Virus record (IMG/VR): IMGVR_UViG_3300029955_000077
DNA: 37,227 bases
Direction: 5' to 3' (one strand)
Source of the DNA: a virus
Under the pieces are notes generated by a model. The model was given only the letters and a program-made list of their open reading frames with translations, made no database searches and was not told where the DNA came from. Of this stretch, positions 8,373 through 28,364 are shown piece after piece (position 1 is the first letter of the stretch; every line of letters starts with the position of its first letter). The position numbers and the translations under genes are program-made.

Positions 8373-8376
8373 TTTT

Positions 8377-8460: not shown

Positions 8461-8469
8461 CCAAATTTT

Positions 8470-9031: not shown

Positions 9032-9111
9032 AGGCTTCTTGGGAGAAGATAGACACTTGATCAGTGGACCGTTTCGTGAAATCCTTCAATCCCACCGGTT
9101 TTAGAAAGTTT

Positions 9112-9184: not shown

Positions 9185-9228
9185 CCAAGATTTAGGAATT
9201 GATTATAAGCCAGTAAGCGTGTATTATT

Positions 9229-9381
9229 ATGATTGACCCAAATCATCTCTACACTTTGCATCAGACATACACAGGAACTGATTGTGCTTTGTGCGGGAAG
9301 CCAGCGACAGAGCATCCATTAGAGTATTGGATGATTAACGGTAAACAACAAGAATTAGTTAGAATTCATATTGGGGAATGA
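9229..9381 (+). CDS. small CxxC protein (50 aa)
   Basis: ATG ORF with CALCG. Its 3' end overlaps tRNA-Phe by 9 nt. Confidence 0.25.
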   Translation: MIDPNHLYTLHQTYTGTDCALCGKPATEHPLEYWMINGKQQELVRIHIGE

Positions 9382-9445
9382 GCTAGTAGGGTTATAGCGT
9401 TCCGCTGAAGACGGAAAGAATCCAGTTCAACTCTGGGATTCCCCA
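9373..9445 (+). tRNA. tRNA-Phe (anticodon GAA)
   Basis: Acceptor GGGGAAT/ATTCCCC, D-arm GCTA-GTAGGGTTA-TAGC, anticodon stem TTCCG/CGGAA with loop CTGAAGA, T-arm TCCAG-TTCAACT-CTGGG, CCA encoded. Confidence 0.7.
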
Positions 9446-9545
9446 CCAAATTTAAAAAGGAGAAGTAAAATGAACTACATGAATTTAAAACAGGAGGTAC
9501 AAAATATGCATACTCATTAAGATACTGCAAAGGAGCGGTAGAACT

Positions 9546-10361: not shown

Positions 10362-10430
10362 GTATTAGGGGGTATGAGCAGAATGCAAAATGTTTTAGGC
10401 TTTTAGACTCCTTAGAAAGGAAGGTAAATT

Positions 10431-10976
10431 ATGGCAGACACTTTAATTCTTGACCAAAACTGGCAACCACAGTCTTTTTGTAACTGGCAGAACGCTGTGA
10501 AATTGATATATGAAGGGCGTGCTCAAGTTATCAAAGAAGACGAGGGTGGGCGCATTTTACGGTCTCCTTCTCTGGAATGGAAGATGCCAAGGGTTATTGT
10601 TGTCAAAAACGCTTGGGTTCGTAGGAAGCGTTTGTCCGTTCCTTTCTCCAGACGCAACATCGCGGTTAGGGATAATAGCGGGTGTCAGTACTGCGGTAGG
10701 GTATTGAAGACTCAGGAATATACTCTTGACCACGTAATGCCTCGTTCTCAAGGTGGTGTATCTTCATGGACCAATTTGGTGCTCGCCTGTGTGCGCTGCA
10801 ACAAGCGTAAGGCCGGTCAGACACCTAAGGAAGCTGGCATGCACTTACTTAAGCAGCCCGTGGAGCCGAAGAAGGACGATCCGAAGTACAACTTCAAGCT
10901 TCACATTAACAAGCTACGGCCAGAATGGAAAGAGTGGGAAACCTGGCTATATTGGAATGTGGAACTAGAAGCGTAG
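10431..10976 (+). CDS. HNH endonuclease (McrA-like)
   Basis: GGAAGG Shine-Dalgarno site. Motif CQYCG...LDHVMPRSQGG...NLVLACVRCNKRK. Confidence 0.8.
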   Translation: MADTLILDQNWQPQSFCNWQNAVKLIYEGRAQVIKEDEGGRILRSPSLEWKMPRVIVVKNAWVRRKRLSVPFSRRNIAVRDNSGCQYCGRVLKTQEYTLDHVMPRSQGGVSSWTNLVLACVRCNKRKAGQTPKEAGMHLLKQPVEPKKDDPKYNFKLHINKLRPEWKEWETWLYWNVELEA

Positions 10977-11074
10977 AAGCTTTGACACGATCCTTTACGT
11001 GTCACATCTGGTCCCGGATGTGCTGACCCAGCTTAAAGGGTAGGGACTACCAATTTATGAACGGAAGTTGAGCC

Positions 11075-11148
11075 ATCCTCGTACCGGCCTCGTTTCCTAA
11101 ACGAGTAACCGTAAAGGAGCAATGTGGGTTCGAGTCCCACCGAGGATA
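11075..11148 (+). tRNA. tRNA-like element with a CCU anticodon-like hairpin and no canonical D-arm
   Basis: 74 nt. Perfect acceptor ATCCTCG/CGAGGAT, T-arm GTGGG-TTCGAGT-CCCAC, CCA encoded. A CTCGT-TTCCTAA-ACGAG hairpin sits where the D-arm should be, followed by an 18-nt extra segment. Confidence 0.3.
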
Positions 11149-11158
11149 CCAGGTTTTT

Positions 11159-11333
11159 ATGTACATCAAATGCAGCATATTCGATGTGGATTTGGATCAT
11201 GTATTTGATGAGCTGCTTTTGCAGTTGACAGAAATAACACTTCCTGATACACTGGAACTTGATGATCGAAAGATAGATAATCAAGAAGATTATAAACTAC
11301 GAGAGTATTTATTGAAGGCTACAAAATAAGCAT
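11159..11333 (+). CDS. possible small acidic protein (58 aa)
   Basis: ATG ORF whose stop lies inside the start of the dispersed repeat. The Shine-Dalgarno site is weak. Confidence 0.2.
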
Positions 11334-11547
11334 TGAAGGTCTTGCGAAAACCAAGCTGGCTAAATCAATGCTGGATGTTGCATTCGGGAAATAAGAATTA
11401 AGAATTCTCGACGCCTTGGGATACATGGAGTCGTTAAACGACTGCGGACAGTGTGTAAGTCTGGCGAAAGCCAGCAGCGCTGGTTGAAACAGTTAAGGGC
11501 GGCGTTAGCCGCCTAGAATCTCCCGCCTTTAGGCGTGGGAGTATCAA
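11314..11547 (+). repeat. dispersed structured repeat, copy 1 (234 bp)
   Basis: About 85-90% identical to 36408-36620, with two small insertions. It contains conserved hairpins GTCG-TTAAA-CGAC and GGCGGC-loop-GCCGCC. Confidence 0.8.
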
Positions 11548-11631
11548 TATGATGGTAATTCTTAACAACACGCTCACCACGCTTCACCTCAGACCTAAAC
11601 GCTAAATTTCCGCGTTCAAAAATCTCTAAAT

Positions 11632-11703
11632 GCCTCTATCGTCCAACTGGAAGGGCACCGGCCTTCTAAGCCGTGGATCCGGGTTCAAGTCCTGGTGGAG
11701 GTA
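11632..11703 (+). tRNA. tRNA-Arg (anticodon UCU)
   Basis: Acceptor GCCTCTA/TGGAGGT, D-arm GTCC-AACTGGAA-GGGC, anticodon loop CTTCTAA, T-arm CCGGG-TTCAAGT-CCTGG, CCA encoded. Confidence 0.65.
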
Positions 11704-11717
11704 CCAAAAATTTTAAT

Positions 11718-11790
11718 GCCCCCGTAGCTCAGTTGGTAGAGCCACCGCCTTTTAAGCGGAGGGTCGCTGGATCGTTCCCGGCCGGGGGTA
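11718..11790 (+). tRNA. tRNA-Lys (anticodon UUU), copy 1
   Basis: Acceptor GCCCCCG/CGGGGGT, D-arm GCTC-AGTTGGTA-GAGC, anticodon loop CTTTTAA, T-arm GCTGG-ATCGTTC-CCGGC, CCA encoded. Confidence 0.65.
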
Positions 11791-11799
11791 CCAAACTTT

Positions 11800-11872
11800 G
11801 GGTGTATCGTCTAATGGCTAAGACCCCGATCTTTTAAATCGGCCGATTTCGGTTCGAGTCCGAATGCACCCA
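11800..11872 (+). tRNA. tRNA-Lys (anticodon UUU), copy 2
   Basis: Acceptor GGGTGTA/TGCACCC, D-arm GTCT-AATGGCTA-AGAC, anticodon stem CCGAT/ATCGG with loop CTTTTAA, T-arm TTCGG-TTCGAGT-CCGAA, CCA encoded. Confidence 0.7.
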
Positions 11873-11961
11873 CCAAATATTCTACTTGACAAATTCCCTT
11901 AAAACCTCTTAAAGTAAAAATAGGTAACCGAAACCTCGTCAGACCAACCGGAGATGTTTTA

Positions 11962-12473: not shown

Positions 12474-13790
12474 ATGATGAAAAAAGAAATGACCCTTTTG
12501 GGTCTAGTCGCCGCTACGTATTTTATGGTAAGCGGAGGCCCGTACGGTCTAGAAGACCTAATTGCTCAAACTGGTTACGGATGGGGAATACTCATTCTTT
12601 GCTTAGTGCCCTTCCTGTGGGCACTGCCAACCGCTATGATGGTTGGTGAACTCGCCTCTGCGATACCGAATCGCGGGGGTTTTTATATTTGGGTGCAACG
12701 TGCCCTTGGAAAATTTTGGGGATTCCAGGAAGCTTGGCTTTCATTAGCGGCTTCCATATTTGATATGGGAATCTACCCGCTACTTTTTATTTCTTACCTG
12801 GGTGTATTGGCTCCAAGTTTCACCGCAGGGTGGCACGGCTCGCTTATAGCAACGGCTCTAATCGCTGTTTGCGTATTGTGGAACCTTCGGGGTGCCAAAG
12901 CTGTAGGAAACGGCTCTGTGGCGTTAGGAGCCCTTATGGTGAGCCCTTTTGTGATTATCACCCTAGCAGCTCTCCGACACGCCCATCTGACCCATGTTAC
13001 GGGTCATCCTCACGCCGTCAGTCTTATGGGCGGTATTATGGTCGCTATGTGGAACTTCATGGGTTGGGATAACGCCAGCACCATAGCCACAGAAGTCAAA
13101 AAACCTCAACGAACCTACCCCATCGCCATGATGGTGACTATGCTGTTGATTGTTGGAAGCTATATTCTCCCCGTAGCAGCGTCTTGGTATCTGGGAGTAC
13201 CCCTGTCTGCCTGGTCAACAGGGAGTTGGGCGACTATTGGTGAAATCATCGCGGGTTCTTGGGTACGAGACGCCATTGTACTGGGTGGAATGATCAGTGC
13301 AGCGGGGATGTTGAACTCCCTCATGATGAGCTATTCTCGTATTCCCCCAGCGCTGGCTGAAGATCATTATCTGCCTCGCATATTCACAAAAATAAATGCA
13401 GTGTCAGTTCCCATGATAGCTTTATTTGCCTTGGCGACAGTTTGGGCAACAGCGTTCGGTTTGAATTTTGACCGTCTGGTGATGCTGGATATTTTACTTT
13501 ATGGAACGAGTCTTATTCTGGAGTTTATCGCTTTAGTGGTATTGCGTTGGAAAGAACCAGATTTGCCTCGACCTTTTCGTGTGCCTGGGGGAAAATTGGG
13601 CGCTATCTTGGTAGGAGTTTGCCCAACGATACTTCTCTTCGCGGCCGGTATTTTTGGGGATCATAACGGACTATTGCTAGGCTTAGGCATGATTCTATCC
13701 GGGGTGGGTGCTTGGTGTGGAATTCATGGATTTCGTGCCGCTAAATATGAAAAAATCGCTCCCACTTTCTCAACTACCACGATCCCCTAA
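12474..13790 (+). CDS. APC-family amino-acid/polyamine permease (about 12 transmembrane segments)
   Basis: Hydrophobic throughout. The GGPYGLE and GELASAIPNRGGFYIWVQRALG motifs are typical of APC transporters. AAAGG Shine-Dalgarno site. Confidence 0.75.
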   Translation: MMKKEMTLLGLVAATYFMVSGGPYGLEDLIAQTGYGWGILILCLVPFLWALPTAMMVGELASAIPNRGGFYIWVQRALGKFWGFQEAWLSLAASIFDMGIYPLLFISYLGVLAPSFTAGWHGSLIATALIAVCVLWNLRGAKAVGNGSVALGALMVSPFVIITLAALRHAHLTHVTGHPHAVSLMGGIMVAMWNFMGWDNASTIATEVKKPQRTYPIAMMVTMLLIVGSYILPVAASWYLGVPLSAWSTGSWATIGEIIAGSWVRDAIVLGGMISAAGMLNSLMMSYSRIPPALAEDHYLPRIFTKINAVSVPMIALFALATVWATAFGLNFDRLVMLDILLYGTSLILEFIALVVLRWKEPDLPRPFRVPGGKLGAILVGVCPTILLFAAGIFGDHNGLLLGLGMILSGVGAWCGIHGFRAAKYEKIAPTFSTTTIP

Positions 13791-13804
13791 TAGAGGTGTT
13801 TTTT

Positions 13805-14110
13805 ATGGGATCTAATTTTTCACTCGCGGTTATTGTTAACAATCTAACCACTATTTTCGGTATTCTAGCAGGATTGCCAGTTCTAGTAATTGCATCCTGT
13901 CAAACTGCCGGAGTTGTTTTGGATTCAACTTTAACGCATGTACTTGCACTCGTTGGAGCAATCGGTTTAATTGGTCTTGGTGTTGTAGCTAAAGCATTTA
14001 ATGTCCACTCTACTGTGGCGCAGACACAAGCTTCGACAGCTGTAGTCACAAATAATCCACAAGCCCCTGAAATGGTTGCTGCGGCAAACAAACAAGCAGG
14101 AGGTAAATAG
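13805..14110 (+). CDS. small membrane protein (2 transmembrane segments)
   Basis: AGAGG Shine-Dalgarno site 8 nt before the ATG. Hydrophobic N-terminal half. Confidence 0.5.
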   Translation: MGSNFSLAVIVNNLTTIFGILAGLPVLVIASCQTAGVVLDSTLTHVLALVGAIGLIGLGVVAKAFNVHSTVAQTQASTAVVTNNPQAPEMVAAANKQAGGK

Positions 14111-14164
14111 CAACTTTTTTGCTGCTTGGGTGTTATAATAGTGTTAAAGAGTAAGGAGACAATT

Positions 14165-14632
14165 ATGCGTAAATCATTGTTTTGGCTGTTTTCAACCTTC
14201 CTATTTTTCACTCTCCCTGTGTATGCTCAGCATTCCACTGGCGGTTCTCATGGTGGCGGTGGGACTCATGGTGGCTCACAGCATGGCGGTAATGTGCATG
14301 CAGGGGGTGCTGTACACCAAGGAGTGCAACAACGCTCTGCTCATTCTAGGATTTCCCGCGGGCATTTCCATAACGGAAGATTTGATCATGGTTACTTCGC
14401 GGGTCATTGGGGAGCTGGCAATCCCTTTTTCTGGGGTGAATGCCGTTGGTGGGGTCCACGATTCGGCATAGGTAGCTGGTTCTGGTACAATGATGCCTAC
14501 TTTGTGATTTTGGAGCCTATTCCATCCGACTGGTACGATGATGAAGTGTATGTAGATGAATACGATGGCGGATATGTTCTAGTAAATCCAATGTACCCCG
14601 GAGTACATTTCGGTGTTAGAGTAAGATTATAA
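14165..14632 (+). CDS. secreted His/Gly-rich protein (signal peptide plus GxHGG repeats and a Trp-rich C-terminus)
   Basis: AGGAG Shine-Dalgarno site 8 nt upstream. N-terminus MRKSLFWLFSTFLFFTLPVYA-Q looks like a signal peptide, followed by GGSHGGGGTHGGSQHGGNVHAGG. Confidence 0.6.
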   Translation: MRKSLFWLFSTFLFFTLPVYAQHSTGGSHGGGGTHGGSQHGGNVHAGGAVHQGVQQRSAHSRISRGHFHNGRFDHGYFAGHWGAGNPFFWGECRWWGPRFGIGSWFWYNDAYFVILEPIPSDWYDDEVYVDEYDGGYVLVNPMYPGVHFGVRVRL

Positions 14633-14664
14633 CTCTAATTTAACAAACTTTTGCGTATTTATTT

Positions 14665-14694
14665 GAGGGGCTATATCTTAGCCCCTTTATTTTA
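14665..14694 (+). terminator. rho-independent terminator
   Basis: AGGGGC-loop-GCCCCT followed by TTATTTTAT. Confidence 0.55.
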
Positions 14695-15047
14695 TGCTTA
14701 CTGAAGAAATTCGAGTTTTCAATTCCGATATTCAAACTTACTATTATCTTCACATTCGTAAAGATAGAGTACAGGCTTTTTATAGCCTTATAGCACAAGA
14801 ACGACACCCAGCACGGGTTTCCTCCATGCCTGGGTTAAGCTGGGCTGCTATCTCTGGTTTGGATGCTATTTTTGAACGCCGACCTTTAAAATTTCCCGTC
14901 TACGATATCTTACATTGGTTTTGTGATAACGCCCTTACTTACGCCCCACAATTTGATCCTCCACTTACCCAAGCGGAAATAGAACATGCTTTAGAGCGAT
15001 TCGCAACTCTATATCCCCCTGATGTTTTAACTGAGAATAGAGTATGA
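14694..15047 (+). CDS. hypothetical protein (117 aa)
   Basis: ATG ORF. Confidence 0.45.
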   Translation: MLTEEIRVFNSDIQTYYYLHIRKDRVQAFYSLIAQERHPARVSSMPGLSWAAISGLDAIFERRPLKFPVYDILHWFCDNALTYAPQFDPPLTQAEIEHALERFATLYPPDVLTENRV

Positions 15048-15553
15048 ACTATCAAAATAAACTTCAAAAAATACAAAAAGAGTTTGTGCTGGGAATAAAA
15101 GATAAATTCACCTGTATGACTAAATTTGAGCAAGTTTTATGGGAATACGGTCTTCTACCAAAACAAGAAGAGTTAGATAGGGAAATGTCTAATGAACATT
15201 TTTCTCGCTTGATACAAATGGCTATGGAACATACAGATACTCATTCAGATCGAGATCCTGAAAATAGTGAAGAATTGGATAATGAATACGCAGCGGCTTT
15301 TTATTCTGTAAGAGTTTGCCCAATTTGTCATATTACGCAATCCCGTCCATTAGTTGGTAGCGTGAGTGATTTAGCTCGAAAAATAACTGCATTAAACCCT
15401 CCTCGTTGTGAACGCTGCGCCATTGATTGGATGAAAAAACATCTAGAGAATTCCCCAAAAGGTGAAAATGTAGATTTGATAAAACCACTTAGCAAAGAAG
15501 AGAAAAAATTTTTTGATGAGTATGAGAAGGAAATGGAAGACTTTGAGGTTTAG
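15044..15553 (+). CDS. hypothetical protein with a C-terminal CxxC...CxxC zinc-binding motif
   Basis: ATGA overlap with the upstream gene. Motif CPICH...CERC. Confidence 0.5.
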   Translation: MNYQNKLQKIQKEFVLGIKDKFTCMTKFEQVLWEYGLLPKQEELDREMSNEHFSRLIQMAMEHTDTHSDRDPENSEELDNEYAAAFYSVRVCPICHITQSRPLVGSVSDLARKITALNPPRCERCAIDWMKKHLENSPKGENVDLIKPLSKEEKKFFDEYEKEMEDFEV

Positions 15554-15777
15554 TGGTATTATTATGGTATATGAATATGAATTTCACTGGATTCATGCAA
15601 GTCATTCCTAAGCCCACGCACTGGTGGCGGCGTCCACACCAAATACATTTTTCTTTGTGGCCAGCTTGGCTAGCTCAAGCATTATGCCCGCATAAAGTCA
15701 AAACTTATTTCACTGATGATCAATGGCGCTGTGATGATTGTTTCAAATTCAATTTCCATCAAAAGGAAGACAAATAA
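15553..15777 (+). CDS. hypothetical small Cys/His protein (74 aa)
   Basis: ORF whose stop overlaps the next start in a TAATG arrangement. Confidence 0.4.
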   Translation: MVLLWYMNMNFTGFMQVIPKPTHWWRRPHQIHFSLWPAWLAQALCPHKVKTYFTDDQWRCDDCFKFNFHQKEDK

Positions 15778-16871
15778 TGATTCACTCCCTTATTTCGGTT
15801 ACAGAATCTACATCAATAGAAAGACGAAAAAATAATGTTATAGGTGCAGTTTTTGGACAAGCCATTGGCGATGCTATAGGACATCCGGTGGAGTTTAAAA
15901 AAACTCATTATGTTGTAGACCTAGATATCCCCAATCAATTTACAGATGACACACAAATGTTTTGTGCTTTGGGTGAGGCGTTAATTGAAGGGAAACCCCA
16001 TGAAATGGAAGATGTATTCATGGATGTTCTTACTAAGAAGTTTGTTGAATGGCGTACAAATCCTTTAGGCGGTAATCATCGTGCTCCAGGGGGTACTTGT
16101 ATGGAAGGAGTTCGAAAATTAGGTGCAAAAGTTCCTTGGACAAAATCTGGAGCTCTAAATGGTAAAGGTAATGGAACGGCGATGCGTAGCGGTGTCGTAG
16201 GGGCGATGTACTGGAAGAATCCTAATTATGCTTTTCGTATAGGAGCTTTGCAAAGCGTCAACACCCACAATAATCTAGAAGCGATATTAGGCGGGGGAAC
16301 AGTTTCTTATCTTGTAGCAGCGGCTATTAATGGTATGAGGTTTTCTATCGCCATATCAAATGTTTTGATGCTCTGTTCTCAATTTCTTAATCCATCTGTT
16401 ATAGCTACTTATCCTCAAAATGTAGCATTCAATGATCTGCGTAAAGGTCAGAGTCCGTGGAAAACCGTAGCAAAATTCGGCTCCGCATTTGCGTTGGGTA
16501 TCTCAGATATACAGGTCGGTGAATTCGCTAAATTCAATGGAGATGATTTTTCTGTAGTGCCAGCGGTATCCGCCGCTATTTTTTACAATACTAGATTCGC
16601 AAATTCAGGTTATGAACAAACAGTGTTAAACGCCGCCAATTTTGGAGATGACGCGGATACTATAGCAGCTATTAGTGGGACTATCGCCGGAGCTAGACAC
16701 GGCGTGGATGGTATACCTACATCATGGGTAGAGAATATCGAACAAAGTGAGTACCTCAGGGATTTCTCAGACCGTTTATGGGAAGCCAGTCTTGCCGCAA
16801 ATGTAACTGTTGATAATGAAACTCCAGTTGACACGGATAGTCTACTGGATATGGATGAAATCGAATTTTAA
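15777..16871 (+). CDS. ADP-ribosylglycohydrolase (ARH/DraG family)
   Basis: AAGGAAGA Shine-Dalgarno site. Motifs GAVFGQAIGDAIGHPVEF, TDDTQM and GDDADTIAAISGTIAGARHG match the ARH-family hallmark motifs. Confidence 0.8.
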   Translation: MIHSLISVTESTSIERRKNNVIGAVFGQAIGDAIGHPVEFKKTHYVVDLDIPNQFTDDTQMFCALGEALIEGKPHEMEDVFMDVLTKKFVEWRTNPLGGNHRAPGGTCMEGVRKLGAKVPWTKSGALNGKGNGTAMRSGVVGAMYWKNPNYAFRIGALQSVNTHNNLEAILGGGTVSYLVAAAINGMRFSIAISNVLMLCSQFLNPSVIATYPQNVAFNDLRKGQSPWKTVAKFGSAFALGISDIQVGEFAKFNGDDFSVVPAVSAAIFYNTRFANSGYEQTVLNAANFGDDADTIAAISGTIAGARHGVDGIPTSWVENIEQSEYLRDFSDRLWEASLAANVTVDNETPVDTDSLLDMDEIEF

Positions 16872-16881
16872 GGAGATAATT

Positions 16882-17604
16882 ATGATCAGCCCACTTCCGG
16901 AAATGCTTGAAACTTTAGGGAAAATGCTAGCACCTGGGATGACAGGAAAATTTCTTGACAGCTTTGCCGCCAATCTCTGCAAACTTCACGATGTAAAGCC
17001 AGCTTTCTTGGGGTATAAACCCCCCAATTTTAGCGGCAAAGAAGGGTTCCCCAATACAATTTGTGTCTCCATAAATGATGAAGTAATTCATGGTATCCCA
17101 TCGGATAGGAAATTTGAGGAAGGAGATGTTATAAAACTTGATATGGGAATCGAGAAAGACGGGGAGTTTGACGATGGAGCGATTACCGTACTTTGTGGTA
17201 CAGTAGATGATGAAGGGCGCATACAAGGGTGCTCTGCGACCGCTAGGAAGCTTGTAGCAGCGACTAAGGAAGCTCTTGCCGCTGGGGTGCAGCAAGCCAA
17301 GGCAGGGAACACAACCCACGATATCGCCAAGGCTGTGGAGACGGTAGCTAAAAATCATGATCTTCATGTAGTTCATGGTTATGGAGGACACGGTATTGGA
17401 AATCAACTACACATGGAACCTCATATCCCGAATGAAGAAGATGGGTCAATCGCAAAAAAATTGGAGTCCGGAACCAGGGTAGCGATCGAACCCATGCTGG
17501 CTACAAATCATGGATTTACTTATGTAGCAGCTGATGGTTGGACGGTAAAGCTTCGTAACGGAGGACTGGCCGCTCATTTTGAGCAGACGGTAGAGATAAA
17601 ATAA
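16882..17604 (+). CDS. map: methionine aminopeptidase, type I
   Basis: AAGGAG site 8 nt before the ATG. Motifs FPNTICVSINDEVIHGIP, GDVIKLDMG, HGYGGHGIG, IEPML and a WT..T.DG...A.FE.T C-terminus match MetAP. Confidence 0.8.
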   Translation: MISPLPEMLETLGKMLAPGMTGKFLDSFAANLCKLHDVKPAFLGYKPPNFSGKEGFPNTICVSINDEVIHGIPSDRKFEEGDVIKLDMGIEKDGEFDDGAITVLCGTVDDEGRIQGCSATARKLVAATKEALAAGVQQAKAGNTTHDIAKAVETVAKNHDLHVVHGYGGHGIGNQLHMEPHIPNEEDGSIAKKLESGTRVAIEPMLATNHGFTYVAADGWTVKLRNGGLAAHFEQTVEIK

Positions 17605-19333: not shown

Positions 19334-20857
19334 ATGGCAAGCGAAAATGATGGTAATGTTGTACTCAAACGTATATTTGGAATGCTGGCTGACAAGGTTC
19401 GCATCTATCAAATTTTAGAAGAAACTGAAGTGCAACGAGACGAATTTGTTTACTGTCAAATTATGCATCAAATTGTTTTTGGTGAAAACGGTTTTACAAA
19501 AACATTAGGGCATGTTTGGGGTATGGTACATGACCCCCGTTTCCAGGAAATAGAAAATTTAATGATTGTAGATCGCCACGCTATTTTCGGTGGTGATGCT
19601 CGATTAGGTAAGCAATACATAAATGACGATGGAACTTTTACTTCTCCTATATCTGATCTGGAGAAGTATTCTGAGATTGTTGGTGAAGGAAGGAATTTTC
19701 ATAATGTTCTTACTCACCCCGATGAAAAATGTCCTCAACGGTTGTGGTTAGAACGAATTCATCGCGGCTTTACAAACATTAAACCTCACTCCACTCTTCA
19801 ATGTATTTGTGCTACCGGTAAAGAAAATCCCACTACATTTAAAGATATGCCCGATGAAATTATATGGGCATTGATTAAGCAAGAATGCCCCAATCGTGGG
19901 TTCAATGCTGACAAAACTCCCAATGCCTACGGTCAATTGATGTATGATCTTATTCGAGCGGATATTATCGGACTTATTCATGATTATGCGGAGACTCCTT
20001 TGATTGACAGTTATGTTTATTTAAGAGATAACGGCATTATTAAGTACACAGAAACAGAATCCGTAGCTTCAATAGACCCGTTTGGTTTAGAAAATCCCAG
20101 AGTTCTTCAAGAACTAGATATATTGGAACAGGCCCTTACTCACCGTGCTACTTTGCGAATGACGGCCTTAAAAATTCTCAAAAAAGCAGGGCTACAAAAT
20201 GAAATCCGTGAGGCTGATTTAACGGATATAGAACGGGATGAATTGTTATGTTTAATATACAGTCATGATTACCCTGATGTTGAAAATACAGATAGTACGA
20301 TGTACAGAGCTGCAATAGATGCTTGGGAAAAACAAATTAAAGAAATTGTTAAAGACTATATTTTATCGGTAATTACAAAAGATTTGAAGGAACGTGAAAC
20401 CGTTCAATTGAATCAATTACAATTAGAGTCTAACGAAGCTGTAGATGGTCTGATGAAAGGAACAATTCAACCTATTAATTCTTACACCGAACCTACGGTA
20501 GAAATTCCTACTGAGCAAGAAGAATCGGAAGTTGTTAAATATGCTCGTATGCTGGAAGCTATTATGGGGAACGAGTTCAAATCCGAACTTTATCTTTTGT
20601 TGATTGAAGCAGAAAGACAAAAAAATACGGCTATTGTAGATTTGTTAACTCCAATATTTCTTACTCCAGATTACCCTTTAGATGAAAAGATTTTTTATAA
20701 TTTCATTGAAAGTATTAGAATAGGTAGTAGAAGTCTGCGAGCGGATCGTCTGGAGGCGATTCGAGGTACGAAGCAAACCGGAATGAACTTAGATCCTGCT
20801 AAGACTACGCAAATCGATGAAGAGTTTCACAGCAAGGATTCACCATTTAGAGGTTAA
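19334..20857 (+). CDS. hypothetical protein (about 507 aa)
   Basis: Long ORF with AAGGA upstream. No recognisable motifs. Confidence 0.6.
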   Translation: MASENDGNVVLKRIFGMLADKVRIYQILEETEVQRDEFVYCQIMHQIVFGENGFTKTLGHVWGMVHDPRFQEIENLMIVDRHAIFGGDARLGKQYINDDGTFTSPISDLEKYSEIVGEGRNFHNVLTHPDEKCPQRLWLERIHRGFTNIKPHSTLQCICATGKENPTTFKDMPDEIIWALIKQECPNRGFNADKTPNAYGQLMYDLIRADIIGLIHDYAETPLIDSYVYLRDNGIIKYTETESVASIDPFGLENPRVLQELDILEQALTHRATLRMTALKILKKAGLQNEIREADLTDIERDELLCLIYSHDYPDVENTDSTMYRAAIDAWEKQIKEIVKDYILSVITKDLKERETVQLNQLQLESNEAVDGLMKGTIQPINSYTEPTVEIPTEQEESEVVKYARMLEAIMGNEFKSELYLLLIEAERQKNTAIVDLLTPIFLTPDYPLDEKIFYNFIESIRIGSRSLRADRLEAIRGTKQTGMNLDPAKTTQIDEEFHSKDSPFRG

Positions 20858-20891
20858 ATGACTACAGACACCCTCTCTTAGAGGGCAATCT

Positions 20892-21233
20892 ATGGCAAAC
20901 TGTTTGCACCTGGAAGTGGATGACGGCTCTGGTTGCGGTGTGAATGTGACAGAGATTAAAGAACCAGCACCAAATGTCGGCAACATCGGTGGAATCGTCA
21001 AATTGATTAATGCGACGGTGAAAACTTATACCCAACTTGTAAGAGAAAATACAGACCCTAAAAACCCCTCACTCCCTCGCCTCCGTCTTATTGGAGGTCA
21101 GTTCGTCCGTATCCCACACAAAAATATCTATAATGATTTGATCGGCCCTTCATATATTGCAGCCAGGGCCTTGGGGTATAGGGGTGGAATCGGCCGCTGG
21201 GCTGACTTGGTTCGAGAAAATATTTCTCTTTAG
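20892..21233 (+). CDS. hypothetical protein (113 aa)
   Basis: ATG ORF. Confidence 0.45.
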   Translation: MANCLHLEVDDGSGCGVNVTEIKEPAPNVGNIGGIVKLINATVKTYTQLVRENTDPKNPSLPRLRLIGGQFVRIPHKNIYNDLIGPSYIAARALGYRGGIGRWADLVRENISL

Positions 21234-21370
21234 CCGAATCCAGTCAACACCCACTAATTCACATGCCACCTTGTAGGGCCCCGTACATACGACCTAAGCA
21301 CAAGTTTACTCTGAGCATCAAAACTTTCCCGGTTATAAGTTGTTGATTTTAAATACTTTAAAAATATCCA

Positions 21371-21396
21371 TTTTCAGTGTTTCCGATGTATACTAG
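21371..21396 (+). promoter_or_regulatory. ttttcagtgtttccgaTGTATACTAggg promoter motif
   Basis: Near-identical to the sequence at 24347-24370 and related to 4244-4260. Confidence 0.5.
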
Positions 21397-21409
21397 GGAT
21401 GGAGGCGAT

Positions 21410-22315
21410 ATGACAAAGAAAAGTAGCTCTGATGTGGCGGCTGATTTGAAAAGTGCAATGGGTTCCGCTGCCGATGCAAAGACTATTCTCGATACACCAG
21501 ATAAGAAAACCGCCAGCCGTTCCACATGGAAGGGTTATATTTCCGCTTTTGGCGTTATGCTGATTCCCGCCGCAACCCTGAAAGCCACTGATGTTGATGC
21601 TATCGAAACCCACATGTACCATAGCGCTGCTTGTCCGAATCGTTTGGTGCAGAAATACACCTGCTCTTGCTGCGACACCGAAGTCCCCAACGCTCGTACA
21701 AACGCCCTTAAGGGTGTAGAAGTGGGGGACAAAGTCATTACTCTCACTCAAGCGGAATTAGACGCTCAGAAGCCCACTAGTGACAAAATTCTCAAAGTCA
21801 CCGAGTTTGTTCCCGCTGATGCGATTGATGTTACCTACTACGAATCCAGCGAATACATCGCCGCTGATAAGGGTGGGGAAAAAGCCTTCGCCACATTCCA
21901 GCAAGCCTTGGCGCAAACGGGGCGTATCGCTATCGGCACCTTCGTAAGCCGCGGTCACCAATACACTGTTGCACTTCGCCCCAAGGGTCAGTATGGTATC
22001 GTCATGTCTTATTTGTTCGCGGAATATGAAGTTCGCAACTGCGGCAAGTGGACGCCTGTTGTTGTCAATCCGGCAGAAGTTGATTTGGTCAAGCAGCTTA
22101 TGACTGAAACCGAACTGGCAAAAGAAGTATTCACCCCCGCCGCCTATGACCCCTATCTCTCTGGCGTGCGCAAGATGATTGCTGCTAAGGCAAATGGTAC
22201 GGAAGTTTGCACCCCGGCTGCGGACGAAGTTCCCAAGGCTACGGATGATTTGTTGGCGGCGTTGAAAGCTACCCTGGAGCAGCAAAAGGCAAAGGCTGCA
22301 AAGGCTGGTGTATAA
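21410..22315 (+). CDS. ku: Ku-like DNA end-binding protein
   Basis: GGAGG site 4 nt before the ATG. WKGYISAFGVMLIPAATLKAT, EFVPADAIDVTYYESSEYIAAD and QQALAQTGRIAIGTFVSRGHQYTVALR parallel the conserved blocks of bacterial Ku. Lys/Ala-rich C-terminal tail. Confidence 0.8.
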   Translation: MTKKSSSDVAADLKSAMGSAADAKTILDTPDKKTASRSTWKGYISAFGVMLIPAATLKATDVDAIETHMYHSAACPNRLVQKYTCSCCDTEVPNARTNALKGVEVGDKVITLTQAELDAQKPTSDKILKVTEFVPADAIDVTYYESSEYIAADKGGEKAFATFQQALAQTGRIAIGTFVSRGHQYTVALRPKGQYGIVMSYLFAEYEVRNCGKWTPVVVNPAEVDLVKQLMTETELAKEVFTPAAYDPYLSGVRKMIAAKANGTEVCTPAADEVPKATDDLLAALKATLEQQKAKAAKAGV

Positions 22316-22337
22316 GGCTGCAAAGGCTGGTGTATAA
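22294..22337 (+). repeat. 22-bp perfect tandem duplication (ggctgcaaaggctggtgtataa x2) across the Ku stop codon
   Basis: Seen directly in the sequence. Confidence 0.8.
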
Positions 22338-22433
22338 ATGGATCAGGTCAATACCCCAACCCCAACGCCTAAAGGCGGATTTAGTATGCCGCATACCCAT
22401 GCGACTCGTTAAGAAAGGCACCAAGGAGAAACT

Positions 22434-23108
22434 ATGACAATCTACTATAAACTCACGACGCAAGAAGGAAAGACTCGTAATGAAACTCAATGGGGAGAGA
22501 ATGTAACTCATGAGGCTACGGGAGACATTAAACAAGACTTGTGCTCCAATGCATGGATACATGCGTACACTCATCCCCTACTCGCTGTGCTTATGAACCC
22601 GGTTCATGCAGATATAGAGAATCCCATCCTTTGGGAAGGAAAGGGAGAAGGGGAGGCAAAATTCGAACCCCTTAAATGCGGGTTCAGGAAATTCACTACC
22701 CTAAAAAAAATCCCATTACCAGAAGTAACTGATGTTCAAAAGGTAGCCTTTGGTATTCTCTGTGCTAAAGAAGTTTACAAAGACTCAAGTTGGAATCAGT
22801 GGGCAGATAAATGGTTAAGCGGGGAAGATCGCACTAAATCTTCTGCTAATGCTGCTGCTGATGCTGCTGCTTATGCTGCTGCTGCTGCTGATGTTGTTGC
22901 TTATTATGCTGCTAATGCTGCTGATGCTTATGCTGCTTCTGATGCTGCTTCTTCTGCTGCTAGGGCTGCTGCTAATGCTGCTTATGCTGCTGCTAATGCT
23001 GCTGATGCTTATGCTGCTTCTGATGCTGCTTCTTCTGCTGCTTCTAAAGCTACGGGCAAAGAATTAGATTTTGTTTCGATTGCCCTTAAAGCCATGGAGG
23101 GGAAATGA
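22434..23108 (+). CDS. hypothetical protein with a C-terminal Ala-rich imperfect repeat region
   Basis: AAGGAG Shine-Dalgarno site. GCT-rich imperfect tandem repeats at 22840-23050 encode the motif AANAADAYAASDAASSAA. Confidence 0.6.
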   Translation: MTIYYKLTTQEGKTRNETQWGENVTHEATGDIKQDLCSNAWIHAYTHPLLAVLMNPVHADIENPILWEGKGEGEAKFEPLKCGFRKFTTLKKIPLPEVTDVQKVAFGILCAKEVYKDSSWNQWADKWLSGEDRTKSSANAAADAAAYAAAAADVVAYYAANAADAYAASDAASSAARAAANAAYAAANAADAYAASDAASSAASKATGKELDFVSIALKAMEGK

Positions 23109-23138
23109 TGAGTAAACAGGGTACGGGTTGGAGGGTCT

Positions 23139-23420
23139 ATGCCACATAAAACGAGTCTCGCTTCCTCCCCCGCCCTAAATGACGGGGCATCCGCTCGACA
23201 GAATCAGGTGAAAAAACAGTGGGGAGAGATTTACCGACTTGTTGCTGTGCGCGAGATGTTGATTAAGCCTATGCTGACTAGCAAGGATCATCAGCTACGA
23301 GAAGAGGAGTACCAAATCGTAGATTTGATTCTGGGGATCAATAGGAAAATTGGCGCTTTGGGAGTATTTAATCCCGCCGCACTCACATCTGAAATGGCGA
23401 AGCAGGAACTTGGGCAATGA
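23139..23420 (+). CDS. hypothetical protein (93 aa)
   Basis: ATG ORF. Confidence 0.4.
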   Translation: MPHKTSLASSPALNDGASARQNQVKKQWGEIYRLVAVREMLIKPMLTSKDHQLREEEYQIVDLILGINRKIGALGVFNPAALTSEMAKQELGQ

Positions 23421-23770
23421 AGATCACTAGATCACTCACTAAAGCACAACAGCAAGTGTTATTCAATATATCGATAGGATTTCCTTTCTGTGAATATCTA
23501 ACACCGGAAAGAACGAGCAGGTTTTTTCGTACTTTGGGAGAGAATATTCCGGCTCGATTGAATTACATTATTACCCTTGACACGGCTGGTAAACGAGTTT
23601 CATATAAGACATTTTTAGCTTTATTCAAGAGAAACCTTATTGCTCCCAGTAAGTACAAAGAAAGTCCATCCCCACAGGATGGCATCACCCAATTTTATTT
23701 AACGGAATTGGGGAGGCAGGAAGTTAACCGAAAAGTGAATTTCAAAATCCCTATTAGGAGAACCGAGTAA
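23417..23770 (+). CDS. hypothetical protein (117 aa)
   Basis: ATGA overlap with the upstream gene. Confidence 0.45.
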   Translation: MKITRSLTKAQQQVLFNISIGFPFCEYLTPERTSRFFRTLGENIPARLNYIITLDTAGKRVSYKTFLALFKRNLIAPSKYKESPSPQDGITQFYLTELGRQEVNRKVNFKIPIRRTE

Positions 23771-23922
23771 TGCCCCAACAATGGGAGAGATTACCCCCAG
23801 ATGAAGAAGCAGGAACCCCTGCTTTGTTTCCCCCAGAATCAGACCTTTGCAGAGAATGTGACGGCACCGGAGTGCTGTATGGACAGCTCTGTAAAAAATG
23901 TGGCGGCAAAGGGGAAATTTAG
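23770..23922 (+). CDS. small zinc-finger protein with a DnaJ-like CxxCxGxG motif (50 aa)
   Basis: TAATG overlap with the previous stop. Motifs CRECDGTG and CKKCGGKG. Confidence 0.4.
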   Translation: MPQQWERLPPDEEAGTPALFPPESDLCRECDGTGVLYGQLCKKCGGKGEI

Positions 23923-23954
23923 CCAAAACCCGTGTTTTGGATGTATACTAAGGT

Positions 23955-24326
23955 ATGAGCCCATCTCAGGAACGAGTCTATTTGGACGCTGAGCGAGAAG
24001 AAGGCATCGCTGAACTTCGTAACGACCCCGCGTACAATTTTGCGGAGCCAGAGTGCATAGTTCCCTCAAAATATCATCAATACTTCGTTGACTACGGGCG
24101 CTGCTTGTATGACAAGCTCCCGCTTCGCCAAGAAATGCACGCGTTCAATCACTACAAAAAATTTCACTGGCACAAGTACCCTCGATACCTTGCGTACCAG
24201 GGCGGTACTTGGCATGAAGTTTCTATAGGTGCTTATTTGGCTGCGAAGTTTGGTCATTTAATTCCCGTCGCTATCGTCCACGATCCTAAAAAACCGAAAA
24301 ATAAACGTGCAAAGGCTGTAAAATAA
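23955..24326 (+). CDS. hypothetical protein (123 aa)
   Basis: Preceded by TGTATACTAAGGT, which looks like a promoter plus Shine-Dalgarno site. Confidence 0.55.
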   Translation: MSPSQERVYLDAEREEGIAELRNDPAYNFAEPECIVPSKYHQYFVDYGRCLYDKLPLRQEMHAFNHYKKFHWHKYPRYLAYQGGTWHEVSIGAYLAAKFGHLIPVAIVHDPKKPKNKRAKAVK

Positions 24327-24375
24327 AAGGGTTAGAAAATATCCATTTTCAGTGTTTCCGATGTATACTAGGGAT

Positions 24376-24576
24376 ATGGCAAAGAAAAAAAAGAAAAAAA
24401 GTAGCTCTGACATGGCGGCTGATTTGAAAAGCGCATTGCAGTCGTTAAACAAGATGATTGGCTATGCAAAATACGTCGAAGAAATGGATTGGTGGTATTT
24501 CAGGGAAGAAGTGCAACCGGGTTGGAAAAATGATTTAGCGGAAGCCGAAGCTATTGCGGCAAAGTTACACACTTAA
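24376..24576 (+). CDS. hypothetical small protein whose N-terminus duplicates the Ku N-terminus
   Basis: A copy of the 21371-21396 promoter lies upstream. The first ~20 codons (KKKKKKSSSDMAADLKSAL) parallel Ku's TKKSSSDVAADLKSAM. Confidence 0.5.
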   Translation: MAKKKKKKSSSDMAADLKSALQSLNKMIGYAKYVEEMDWWYFREEVQPGWKNDLAEAEAIAAKLHT

Positions 24577-24583
24577 GGATTCT

Positions 24584-24787
24584 ATGATGACAGACACATT
24601 TACATTTTGTAACCCGGCAGCACGTACAGAGTGGCGCAATGATCACGGGGTGGAGAAATGTGGTGTGGAGTTTGCCTTCACAGAGACAGATGAAGTCTTT
24701 CATGGATTTCCTTTGTTCTACCTGCACATGGAGCGTATCTCCCCGACCAATAAAGCGCTCTTGACAAGGGCGGCAGCAAATGAGTAA
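24584..24787 (+). CDS. hypothetical protein (67 aa)
   Basis: AAGGA site 7 nt before ATG 24584, which follows the upstream stop. Confidence 0.45.
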   Translation: MMTDTFTFCNPAARTEWRNDHGVEKCGVEFAFTETDEVFHGFPLFYLHMERISPTNKALLTRAAANE

Positions 24788-25019
24788 TTTATTTGTTATA
24801 GGGGAAGATGAAAAGCCACAATGCTCCGCTTGCTACAAATTCTTTGAACCGGTGGGGGAATATTTTGAACGGTGTAAAAGCCGAACAAAATTTTCCCCTG
24901 ATTTTCCGAAGTTCGCTGAATCAGATCCTTTTGCATTTTGTTCCGAGAGGTGTGAACAGGCGACAATCGATCAAATGCGAATAACTCGAATTGAGGATGT
25001 CAAACAGTCCGATTTCTAA
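24780..25019 (+). CDS. Cys-rich small protein (79 aa)
   Basis: ATGA overlap. Motif CSAC...C...C.ERC. Confidence 0.45.
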   Translation: MSNLFVIGEDEKPQCSACYKFFEPVGEYFERCKSRTKFSPDFPKFAESDPFAFCSERCEQATIDQMRITRIEDVKQSDF

Positions 25020-25061
25020 AAAATTATCAATCTACCAAGGTCCTTAAAAGAGGTATCCCTT

Positions 25062-25229
25062 ATGTACGATGAAGATGAAGATTTGGATCGTGTAGACCAC
25101 GATTCAGATGATGAAGAAGAATTCGTTGAAGATGATGAAGACGAACTACAGGAACTGGATGTAGACGAACGCGGGCATGTTCGACCACGCCGCCGAAAGT
25201 CCGAAGATCGGGAAGAAGAGGATGTGTGA
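25062..25229 (+). CDS. highly acidic small protein (55 aa, Asp/Glu >45%)
   Basis: AGAGG Shine-Dalgarno site. Sequence MYDEDEDLDRVDHDSDDEEEFVEDDEDELQELDVDE... Confidence 0.5.
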   Translation: MYDEDEDLDRVDHDSDDEEEFVEDDEDELQELDVDERGHVRPRRRKSEDREEEDV

Positions 25230-25528
25230 AAATTTTATTTGTCTTCGCACTGCTGGCATTTTCAGGATTATCAATCTGGAGAATAAAAAACTCAGTTGTT
25301 AGTTATCCGCATACGGGGGCTGCTCATACGGGGGCTGCTCATACGGGGGCTGCTCATACGGGGGCTGCTCTAATTGCACCCCCGAGTTTACCACCATGTC
25401 TAGGCAATTGTGAGTTTTGGGGAGATTTTTCAGCTATTCCGACCCCAGAAATTCGTTCCTCTCCGCTATTTGATTCCATCTGCGTAACAGGAAATCCCTG
25501 CAATCAGCGAAAATTGAACTTTATATAA
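25226..25528 (+). CDS. exported or membrane protein with a 4x PHTGAA repeat
   Basis: GTG start overlapping the upstream stop. Hydrophobic N-terminus MKILFVFALLAFSGLSIW. 15-bp tandem repeats at 25311-25370. Confidence 0.45.
   Translation: MKILFVFALLAFSGLSIWRIKNSVVSYPHTGAAHTGAAHTGAAHTGAALIAPPSLPPCLGNCEFWGDFSAIPTPEIRSSPLFDSICVTGNPCNQRKLNFI
25311..25370 (+). repeat. perfect 15-bp tandem repeat x4 (atacgggggctgctc)
   Basis: Seen directly. It keeps the reading frame and encodes HTGAA. Confidence 0.85.
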
Positions 25529-27096: not shown

Positions 27097-27912
27097 ATGT
27101 CCAACTACTACAACGAATACGAACCGCATGCAGCCGCTTGGTTGCGAAATTTAATCAGCGCGGGTCTGTTGCCAAAAGGGGATGTTGATGAACGAAGCAT
27201 TACAGATGTTACAACTAGCGACCTCGCAGGATACACCCAATGTCACTTCTTCGCCGGGATCGGCGGATGGTCCGTCGCCCTCCAGATCGCAGGAGTGCCA
27301 GACGACTACCCAATCTGGACAGGGAGCTGCCCCTGTCAACCCTTCAGCGCCGCACCTGGAGAACGAAAAGGTACTGCCGATAAACGTCACCTCTGGCCTG
27401 TCTGGTCAGGGCTCATCCGCGAGTGTCGCCCTGCAATTTGCTTTGGAGAACAAGTTGAGGCAGCTATTAGGTACGGATGGCTCGATATTGTATCGGCAGA
27501 CTTGGAAGATCAAGGCTACGCCGTCGGGGCGGCGATACTTGGCGCTTGTAGCGTCGGCGCTCCCCACAAGCGACAACGGCTATATTGGGTGGCCGACTCC
27601 CAACGCGTCCCAGCACAATTACTACGAGAACCCGGACGGATGGTTAGCGAGACAGGAACAGCGGAAAAAGGACGGCAAGCAGACGTTCGCGATCAACTTG
27701 GGAATAGCGGCGAAGTTCACTTCTGGGACAGCCCTGAGTGGCTCGCCTGTAGAGACGGGCGACAAAGACCATGTGAACCCGGAGTTAGCCCGCTGGCTAA
27801 TGGGATTCCCAACCGGGTGGACAAATTACGCGCCTACGGGAACTCGATCTGCCCTCCGCTCGCCTCGAAATTCATTCAAGCGGTCCTTGAAGCGAAAGAA
27901 GAAATCCAATGA
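27097..27912 (+). CDS. DNA (cytosine-5)-methyltransferase
   Basis: Motif I FFAGIGGW, motif IV PCQPFS and motif X AYGNSI. The gene lies in a GC-rich patch. Confidence 0.8.
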   Translation: MSNYYNEYEPHAAAWLRNLISAGLLPKGDVDERSITDVTTSDLAGYTQCHFFAGIGGWSVALQIAGVPDDYPIWTGSCPCQPFSAAPGERKGTADKRHLWPVWSGLIRECRPAICFGEQVEAAIRYGWLDIVSADLEDQGYAVGAAILGACSVGAPHKRQRLYWVADSQRVPAQLLREPGRMVSETGTAEKGRQADVRDQLGNSGEVHFWDSPEWLACRDGRQRPCEPGVSPLANGIPNRVDKLRAYGNSICPPLASKFIQAVLEAKEEIQ

Positions 27913-28364
27913 CGACACCGCTTAACCGATCAGTCAATTGCCGTGTATGCGGTGTGCTCATTCCAAAACCACGCTCATCCAACAGGAAGTATTGCAGCGA
28001 TGCACACGCCCAGAAAGGGTTCCGCCTAGACCATCCCGACCATGAAAAGGAAAGGTACCAGAAGGACAAACAGGGATGCAGGGCACGTCATTTGATTCGT
28101 AAGTATAAAGGGTTCACCCAAGCCGACTATGACAAAATGCTTGCCGAACAAAACGGGGCGTGCAAGATATGCGAATGCAGGCAGGAGAAGTGCCTTGACA
28201 TTGACCACGACCACAAGACTGGACGAGTTCGTGGCCTGCTTTGTCACAACTGCAATTTGATGCTAGGAAACGCCCACGACGATCCAGAAACACTCGCCAA
28301 GGCGATTAAATACTTGGCAAGTCGCGGCGGCATCGTGAAGGCAATTATTGACGAGGTGCGGTAA
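27909..28364 (+). CDS. recombination endonuclease VII family protein
   Basis: CKICE...LDIDHDHKTGRVRGLLCHNCNLMLG matches the Endo VII signature. ATGA overlap with the methyltransferase. Confidence 0.8.
   Translation: MTTPLNRSVNCRVCGVLIPKPRSSNRKYCSDAHAQKGFRLDHPDHEKERYQKDKQGCRARHLIRKYKGFTQADYDKMLAEQNGACKICECRQEKCLDIDHDHKTGRVRGLLCHNCNLMLGNAHDDPETLAKAIKYLASRGGIVKAIIDEVR

Follow-up and report, generated by a model that had tools for sequence, protein, structure and literature searches.

The stretch of DNA analysed here comprises 37,227 nucleotides (nt) of the virus record IMGVR_UViG_3300029955_000077 (hereafter the window; 44% guanine plus cytosine (GC), with essentially all genes on the + strand). 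In it a gene for a Ku-like DNA-end-binding protein is preceded by a short sequence that recurs at three other places, once together with the first codons of the Ku gene itself. The question raised by this locus is what the recurring sequence does and how the beginning of Ku came to stand at the head of a second open reading frame (ORF). The reading that we prefer, with a probability of about 65%, is that the four sites are copies of one class of transcription promoter of an uncultivated large-phage family, that three of the window genes behind them are leaderless, and that one copy (c2 below) arose by recombination from the Ku locus. The copies and the Ku gene are the following; the number and identity of the copies are read directly from the DNA and their promoter activity is predicted.

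4231-4258, + strand: predicted promoter c4, with the -35-like box TAGCCA at 4231-4236, a 16-nt spacer and the -10 box TATACT at 4253-4258.
21361-21400, + strand: predicted promoter cassette c1 (Ku), with an A-rich upstream part, TATCCA at 21365-21370, an 18-nt spacer, TATACT at 21389-21394 and the discriminator AGGGAT.
21410-22315, + strand: Ku-like DNA-end-binding protein of 301 amino acids (aa); residues 1-19 (21410-21466) are the duplicated coding segment.
23920-23949, + strand: predicted promoter c3, with TAGCCA, an 18-nt spacer and TATACT at 23944-23949.
24336-24375, + strand: predicted promoter cassette c2, with the -35-like TATCCA at 24340-24345, an 18-nt spacer and TATACT at 24364-24369; identical to c1.

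The core TGTATACTA has four exact matches in the window (4251, 21387, 23942 and 24362), all on the + strand, against an expectation of 0.22 from dinucleotide shuffles, and none of 100 shuffles attained four. Since c1 and c2 belong to one duplication, these matches amount to three independent copies. When one mismatch was allowed the scan of the window gave eight matches for 6.8 expected, which is not above chance, so that only the exact form of the motif is informative. A preliminary description of this DNA had proposed a longer motif at all four sites. The four core copies were recovered exactly, but the upstream part ttttcagtg is present at only three of them (4244, 21371 and 24346) and is missing from the copy at 23935, which reads cccgtgttttggatgTATACTA.

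The element is composed of two boxes, a -35-like T[AG][GT][CA]C[AG] and a -10 TATACT usually placed after TG, with a spacer that is usually 18 nt long. The TAG in the TAGCCA of c3 is also the stop codon of the preceding 50-aa zinc-ribbon ORF. Compared with TATAAT, the -10 hexamer has the A at position 2 and the T at position 6, being TATACT in all four window copies. Moreover, in a cassette copy of another phage contig, IMGVR_UViG_3300031788_000008 (L001; 75.8 kb, also assembled from two samples as L003 and L004), TATAAT replaces TATACT and the rest is identical, which supports the assignment of the -10 box.

The same bipartite element is found upstream of the Ku orthologue (41-68% identical) in five relatives (L006, L011, L012, L013 and L014), upstream of rIIA in three (L006, L012 and L013) and upstream of a few other genes; before Ku and rIIA it is intergenic, co-oriented with the gene and at the orthologous position. 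The relatives carry TGGACA, TGGACG, TAGCCG, TAACCA or TAGCTA as the -35-like box, an 18-nt spacer of quite different sequence, and TATACT as the -10 (TATATT in two copies). A relaxed pattern run over their loci gave 19 matches on the coding strand and 2 on the opposite strand. Two fixed boxes separated by a spacer of fixed length but free sequence, at orthologous positions, are the signature of a promoter and neither of an RNA element nor of a recombination site. The promoter character earlier ascribed to the TG-TATACT motif is supported, indirectly, by the -35-like box, by the variable spacer of fixed length and by the conservation upstream of orthologues, although its TG is not in the register of an extended -10.

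Several features of the element weigh against this reading. The -35-like boxes of the window (TAGCCA and TATCCA) match TTGACA at only 3-4 of 6 positions, TTGACA being the consensus of E. coli; in the relatives TGGACA reaches 5 of 6, at a distance of 18 nt. In every copy the TG directly abuts TATACT (-14/-13), one base closer than in a canonical extended -10, and a strongly conserved C in TATACT is atypical of sigma-70 and could indicate a dedicated sigma factor. In addition, the nearest cultured relative, the Tunturiibacter phage Tunturi_5, has no such motif in the 50 kb examined. A canonical extended -10 (TGn-TATAAT, with TG at -15/-14) was rejected because the TG is one base out of register. 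An operator was also considered, as an inverted repeat ATATCC(N)GGATAT brackets the c2 promoter and ATATCCAT/ATGGATAT occurs in one L001 copy; the idea was dropped because the repeat is absent or partial in c1, c3, c4 and L002. Folding statistics gave no support to a hairpin inside the cassette, shuffled sequence folding about as well as the regions of c1, c2 and c3 (z values between -0.4 and +1.4).

The conserved C leads to the first alternative, in which the phage itself would encode the sigma factor or RNA polymerase that recognises the cassette, making it a truly phage-specific class, possibly middle or late. TATACT keeps its C in about 15 of 18 copies, in relatives of 42-59% GC, the -35-like box is not TTGACA, the spacer is fixed at 18 nt, and near-consensus TTGACA-17/18-TATnnT sequences at 1684, 6685, 11225, 11886 and 36363 could be the real host-type promoters. 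Against these points stand the two-box geometry and the TATAAT variant of L001, both of which fit sigma-70, and the window ORFs scanned, among which no gene for a sigma factor or RNA polymerase was found. The class also precedes rIIA and Ku, whose counterparts in T4 and Mu are early genes. We consider a reader encoded by the phage unlikely. The label "phage-specific" given to the motif in the preliminary description goes further than the data, since the element looks sigma-70-like and the host RNA polymerase is at least as likely to read it.

The position of the transcription start was predicted from the same alignments. The base 6-7 nt past the -10 is a purine following a T in nearly every copy, and this conserved T/purine step, which is the likely start of transcription, falls on the first G of GGAGGGAA in the relatives and on the A of the ATG in five low-GC copies. 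In the higher-GC relatives the layout is TATACT-6 nt-GGAGGGAA, with the ATG 3-9 nt later. Their predicted leaders are thus about 12-17 nt long and start with the Shine-Dalgarno sequence (SD). Longer ones are predicted for rIIA, at about 20 nt, and for the Ku genes of L012 and L013, where some 50 nt include a hairpin. The features that bear on this point in the window are as follows.

4190-4218, + strand: intrinsic-terminator-like hairpin with an 11-bp stem and a T-rich tail behind it, immediately before c4.
4266-4472, + strand: 68-aa gene, with its ATG 7 nt past the -10, predicted leaderless; conserved protein.
21401-21409, + strand: GGAGGCGAT, SD plus spacer, present in c1 and not in c2; the first G (of GGAGG) is the predicted +1.
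23955-24326, + strand: 123-aa gene, with its ATG 5 nt past the -10, predicted leaderless; conserved protein.

Between the end of TATACT and the start codon lie 7 nt at 4266, 15 nt at Ku (21410), 5 nt at 23955 and 6 nt at 24376. The start region of Ku reads TATACT-agggat-GGAGGcgatATG, giving a predicted leader of 9 nt. At the other three sites the A of the ATG lies on the predicted start position, 6-8 nt past the -10 (agaaggtATG at 4266, aaggtATG at 23955 and agggatATG at 24376). The equivalents in L001 are tgggtATG and agggatGTATG, and in L002 aggaatATG, which opens a 7-codon mini-ORF before an SD-led gene. Most other genes of the window have an SD at normal spacing, so that the three abutting ATGs are exceptions.

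The starts of the two conserved proteins are well supported by their N-termini. For the 68-aa protein L013 encodes a homologue at 15776-16027 (52% identity), with a longer N-terminus, a normal SD and no promoter there; conservation begins at residue 4 and there is no alternative in-frame start. The 123-aa protein has a 53% identical homologue (P0041) whose N-terminus is aligned with it, and an in-frame stop lies two codons 5' of its ATG. In L017 the homologue of this gene has a normal SD leader, and the c3 promoter is absent at the orthologous junction. Leaderless or nearly leaderless mRNAs are predicted from this geometry as its most economical reading. The same had been proposed earlier for all four sites, and the geometry does predict leaders of 0-9 nt, but Ku itself would not be leaderless, as it keeps a 5'-terminal GGAGG.

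A second alternative, which we judge improbable to about the same degree as a reader encoded by the phage, accepts the promoters but not leaderless translation from the abutting ATGs: longer transcripts from upstream would use close purine runs or translational coupling, or the promoters would serve genes further downstream. It draws on a further point against the preferred reading, namely purine-rich runs (AAGG, GAAGG or GGGA) 1-3 nt before the abutting ATGs, which might serve as very close SDs on read-through transcripts. Moreover, no terminator was found upstream of c2 or c3, and c3 overlaps the stop codon of the ORF before it. The ATG behind c2 opens only a 9- to 16-codon frame in four of ten alleles, and the ATGs near the start site in L002 and at Ku open only mini-ORFs of 4-7 codons before the SD-led gene. 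On the other side, a spacing of 1-3 nt is far under the usual 5-9 nt for an SD. At c4 the strong hairpin at 4190-4218 leaves a gap of 47 nt to the ATG at 4266, and the promoter occupies all of it. Finally, the ATG falls exactly on the T/purine step in five independent cassettes, for which chance would give about 6% per promoter (window of four positions).

The copy of the cassette at 24336 also carries the beginning of Ku, and the ORF behind it has the following parts.

24376-24444, + strand: Ku-derived 5' segment of the ORF; its ATG is at the predicted +1 and its A-tracts (24381-24400) vary in length.
24376-24576, + strand: full 66-aa ORF of the window, a Ku-derived N-terminus with an unrelated body.
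24412-24576, + strand: 54-aa ORF (P0002) from an internal ATG, the only frame kept in all A-tract alleles.

Positions 21361-21400 and 24336-24375 are identical at 40 of 40 nt. Past this block copy 1 carries nine additional bases, those of the SD and spacer listed above, and when the coding starts are aligned (ATGACAAAGAAAAGTAGCTCTGATGTGGCGGCTGATTTGAAAAGTGCAATG against ATGGCAAAG, 12 inserted A-rich nt and AAAAGTAGCTCTGACATGGCGGCTGATTTGAAAAGCGCATTG) identity is 89% over 45 nt. The similarity fades at about 21466 (Ser19 of Ku) and 24444 (Ser23 of the ORF). The duplication of some 95 bp, covering the promoter and the first 20 or so codons of Ku, that had been described earlier is therefore confirmed to about 19 codons, and so is the expanded poly-A/Lys tract, because the 12 extra A-rich bases of copy 2 give KKKKKK where Ku has KK.

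Nearly all Ku orthologues start with the peptide MAKKSAADVAADLK, whose codons differ synonymously between contigs, and the peptide reads as an old, selected part of this Ku clade lying outside the Ku core domain. Among the loci examined it was seen on no protein other than Ku and the 24376 ORF. A homologue search with the 66-aa ORF and P0002 returned only near-identical copies, with no homologue outside the window phage and no ancestor of the ORF body. Since the peptide is conserved in the Ku orthologues and is otherwise present only on an ORF without homologues, Ku was the source of the copied segment and the 66-aa ORF its recipient. This settles one part of the earlier claim, in which the promoter and the N-terminal coding segment of Ku had been found fused to an unrelated 66-aa ORF: the copying stands and its direction can now be assigned, but the frame of the fusion is unstable.

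Some details bear on how the copy was made. Copy 2 retains the ancestral Ala2 (GCA) and the window Ku has Thr2 (ACA), and the layout of -10, 6 nt and GGAGG seen in the relatives is ancestral. Copy 2 would thus have lost GGAGGCGAT by a deletion flanked by GAT repeats, which brought the ATG onto the start site. On its 5' side the duplication begins exactly where the cassette begins in its other contexts. This fits an exchange initiated by the homology of two cassettes already in place, with an illegitimate end within Ku.

The instability of the fusion frame lies in the A-tracts of copy 2, which reads ATGGC-A3-G-A8-G-A7-GTAGC in the window. Three alleles were observed in ten assemblies.

A-run allele (3,8,7), six of ten assemblies: in frame, 66-aa ORF.
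A-run allele (3,9,7), three of ten assemblies: out of frame; the ATG at the start site opens 9 codons.
A-run allele (3,8,6), one of ten assemblies: out of frame; the ATG at the start site opens 16 codons.

The length of the A-run is the sole difference from the window in 1.8 kb of L010 and the sole indel in 2.7 kb of L007. The only other variation in the ORF is a pair of Trp-to-Leu changes in L015. The internal ATG of copy 2 corresponds to the ninth codon of Ku, where it is GTG (Val9). Automatic gene calling overlooked the leaderless starts, and on 8 contigs it was the 54-aa form, P0002, that was reported. Because four of ten assemblies break the frame, the Lys-rich N-terminus derived from Ku may be dispensable or switchable. 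It counts against this view that differences in A-tracts could in principle be homopolymer sequencing errors, yet the A9 allele is found in three unrelated datasets.

The peptide could instead be a functional module grafted on a second protein, as a tag for interaction, localisation or packaging, and not a by-product of recombination. Its strong conservation at the protein level in the Ku orthologues, outside the core domain, would agree with this, as would the fact that the ORF retains SSSD(V/M)AADLKSA(M/L), with four nt differences of which two are synonymous and two conservative. On the other hand, the tag was seen on no further protein in the loci examined, its first 12 residues are frameshifted away in four of ten alleles, the ORF has no homologues outside this phage, and its sole substitutions are the two Trp-to-Leu changes; with so few differences selection is indistinguishable from recent origin. 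A grafted module is thus quite improbable, more so than the two alternatives already weighed.

That copy 2 is an artefact of assembly or a chimera has practically no chance of being true, even though one of the supporting contigs (L005) is itself chimeric, because independent assemblies, 98.5-100% identical to the window, contain each of the copies. Nine further contigs from several projects (L005, L007-L010, L015 and L022-L024) have copy 2 between its unique flanks, and L016 has copy 1 with Ku. L005 (Ga0209905_1014951), a public metagenome contig of 1,048 nt, consists of six pieces of the window with Nextera transposase adapter sequence (CTGTCTCTTATACACATCT) at the joints; none of the others is chimeric.

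The cassette is not confined to this phage. The 40-nt block common to c1 and c2 is identical at 40 of 40 positions in L001 (11917-11956), where a second copy, the one with TATAAT, lies 247 nt further upstream, and a copy in L002 is 95% identical, with TAGCCA in the -35 position. In both contigs the cassettes precede genes unrelated to those of the window. Besides the cassette, the only nucleotide similarity detected between the window and L001 is an element of about 250 nt at 96% identity (about 20 of the 75.8 kb sampled), protein similarity being weak; no other nucleotide similarity to the window was detected in L002 either. The identity of the cassette across diverged genomes, when the spacer is free in other relatives, is not explained by promoter constraint alone, and points to a recent exchange or gene conversion between phages that are otherwise diverged.

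Exact scans of public collections recovered the cassette in one other phage contig in IMG/VR and in four metagenome contigs. There was no match in 185,579 reference genomes, and so no prophage or host clue was obtained, and megablast of window positions 20800-25100 against deposited phages gave no match. Tunturi_5 is a jumbo phage of Acidobacteriota with a genome of 309 kb (PMC11924767). It matches the window in the helicase (52% identity) and in a 507-aa protein (36%), has 58% GC and shows no Ku match; it was not used to assign a host.

Taken together, the preferred reading would run as follows. The reader would be a holoenzyme of the sigma-70 type, probably that of the host, acting early in infection. 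In the low-GC lineage of the window the cassette would end at -1 and abut the coding sequence, so that the mRNAs of the 68-aa gene (4266), the 123-aa gene (23955) and the 24376 ORF would start at or within one base of the AUG and be leaderless, and that of Ku would start with its SD and have a leader of 9 nt. Near-identical cassettes at several loci would offer a foothold for recombination, and an exchange beginning in the cassette may have carried the Ku cassette and the first 19 or so codons of Ku to a locus 3 kb downstream. The SD would then have been lost with 9 nt deleted between GAT repeats, slippage in the A-tract would have added four Lys codons, and a Val-to-Met change would have created the internal ATG that keeps the 54-aa product in all alleles. 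The outcome would be a chimeric orphan ORF with a Lys-rich, Ku-derived N-terminus that is in frame in some alleles only.

A bolder version, which we regard as doubtful, would see in the 40-nt cassette a self-contained promoter module that stops precisely where transcription begins and is transferred horizontally between otherwise unrelated large phages sharing an environment. It would make downstream genes leaderless and occasionally carry along the first codons of the previous gene, giving chimeric orphans; in the present one the slippery A-tract would toggle the product between 66 aa with the Ku tag and 54 aa without it.

What emerges is a specific promoter consensus, open to test, for a family of uncultivated phages from soil and peat for which, to our knowledge, no transcription signal is currently known. 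The predicted set of leaderless phage genes bears both on translation initiation and on gene calling. The 24376 ORF moreover suggests steps by which a chimeric ORF can be born: recombination at a cassette, removal of the SD, lengthening of a homopolymer and the gain of an internal start.

The protein encoded by the Ku gene belongs to Pfam PF02735 (103.5 bits against a cutoff of 25, E=1.8e-29, residues 52-221) and to PHROG 4873. Its homologues, 41-68% identical, are located on uncultivated contigs of up to 458 kb, usually right after rIIA-rIIB. In L006 (4333-10001), L012 and L013 both rIIA and rIIB sit between a homologue of a 113-aa ORF and Ku, with the promoter class before rIIA and before Ku; neither the window (20892-21410) nor L014 has rIIA-rIIB at this position. 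The absence of the pair is consistent with a deletion from promoter to promoter. Cassettes may also delimit rearrangements among related phages, in view of four observations: the 5' edge of the duplication is the edge of a cassette, c3 is absent in L017, an SD leader stands in place of c4 in L013, and rIIA-rIIB lies between two promoters in the relatives but is missing upstream of the window Ku.

Just downstream of Ku a 224-aa ORF has an alanine-rich stretch (22807-23076) with a periodicity of 9/12 nt (AAADAAAYAAAAADVVAYYAANAADAYAASDAASSA...) and only a weak PHROG tail-fibre match. Further on, at 25310-25384 and inside a 100-aa ORF, a 15-nt unit, CATACGGGGGCTGCT, is repeated perfectly in tandem about 3.5 times; as L015 lacks 25305-25404, this region is variable between strains. 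A 151-nt segment (27948-28098) in the endonuclease VII gene (27909-28364) is missing from L007, which is otherwise 99.9% identical. The families recognised in the window include an RlaP-family nucleotidyltransferase, an HNH endonuclease, a C5 methylase, endonuclease VII and an SNF2 helicase, and there are many small ORFs without a family. Host-like metabolic genes are found at 12474-17604 (an amino-acid permease, an ADP-ribosylglycohydrolase and an M24 methionine-aminopeptidase-like protein). An 826-aa protein at 1684-4164 has the shoulder and repeat domains of the major vault protein (PF11978, 3.6e-26; PF17795), which is unusual for a phage. The ORFs are intact under table 11, and an alternative genetic code was not needed.

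An array of 15 tRNA genes extends over 7017-11875, with four different tRNA-Arg, three tRNA-Lys and one unassigned call with a two-base anticodon (8961-9031). Partly repeated units of about 200 nt lie around the tRNA-Arg genes. An Rfam search of the window returned tRNAs only. A repeat of about 220-240 nt, present at 11312-11552 and 36406-36624 of the window and at 9891-10109 of L001, is 86-96% identical between copies and adjoins tRNA genes. Its consensus folds into several hairpins (-73.9 kcal/mol, 65 pairs), one of them with a GAAA loop and one compensatory change of G-C to U-A, and it had no Rfam match even at E<=1. The copy at 36406-36624 follows a near-consensus TTGACA-18-TATATT promoter (36363-36392). 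The repeat is a candidate structured RNA or small mobile element.

Among known systems, the window Ku resembles the Ku proteins encoded by mycobacteriophages (PHROG 4873) in its beta-barrel core (PF02735) and its Lys-rich C-terminal tail, and its best matches in deposited phages are those of mycobacteriophages Dallas and Klein (26-27% identity). Unlike them, the clade of the window has its own conserved N-terminal peptide, MAKKSAADVAADLK, and its gene adjoins rIIA-rIIB in the relatives.

The textbook leaderless phage mRNA is that of lambda cI transcribed from PRM. The window genes agree with leaderless mRNAs in having a -10 located 5-7 nt 5' of the ATG, no usable SD and a predicted start on the A of the AUG; they differ in that their start sites are predictions only and in that most genes of this phage use an SD. 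Many leaderless genes are known in Actinobacteria and Deinococcus (Zheng et al. 2011, PMC3160421; Shell et al. 2015, PMC4633059). In the jumbo phage phiKZ differential RNA sequencing (dRNA-seq) detected no leaderless early transcripts (PMC8244752), so leaderlessness is no general trait of jumbo phages.

The closest parallel is offered by the promoter-early stem-loop (PeSL) cassettes of T4-type phages. These strong early promoters of sigma-70-like type occur in repeated copies and comprise an A/T-rich upstream part and a stem-loop; most of them precede orphan genes in hyperplastic regions, where they bring about modular shuffling (Arbiol et al. 2010, PMC2839356; Comeau et al. 2014, PMC4122927). 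The window cassettes share several of these properties: they are short, repeated, near-identical and sigma-70-like, with an A/T-rich upstream part; they front small orphan genes in a variable, non-structural region; c4 has an adjacent terminator hairpin (4190-4218); and, judged from sequence, they appear to act as points of homologous exchange between unrelated sequences and are common to related phages. They differ in four respects. Three of the four window copies have no significant stem-loop; PeSLs end in an SD before the start codon, whereas the window cassettes reach to -1, directly against the ATG; in the window neither the -35 nor the -10 box is that of the E. coli consensus; and the exchange in the window ran into coding sequence and gave a chimeric ORF. 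Because the stem-loop is missing in three of four copies and the cassettes end at -1, they can be said to work like PeSLs and are not placed in the PeSL family. Chimeric ORFs arising from partial duplication are well known, and the locus holds no surprise in principle, modular shuffling driven by repeated early promoters being documented in T4-type phages.

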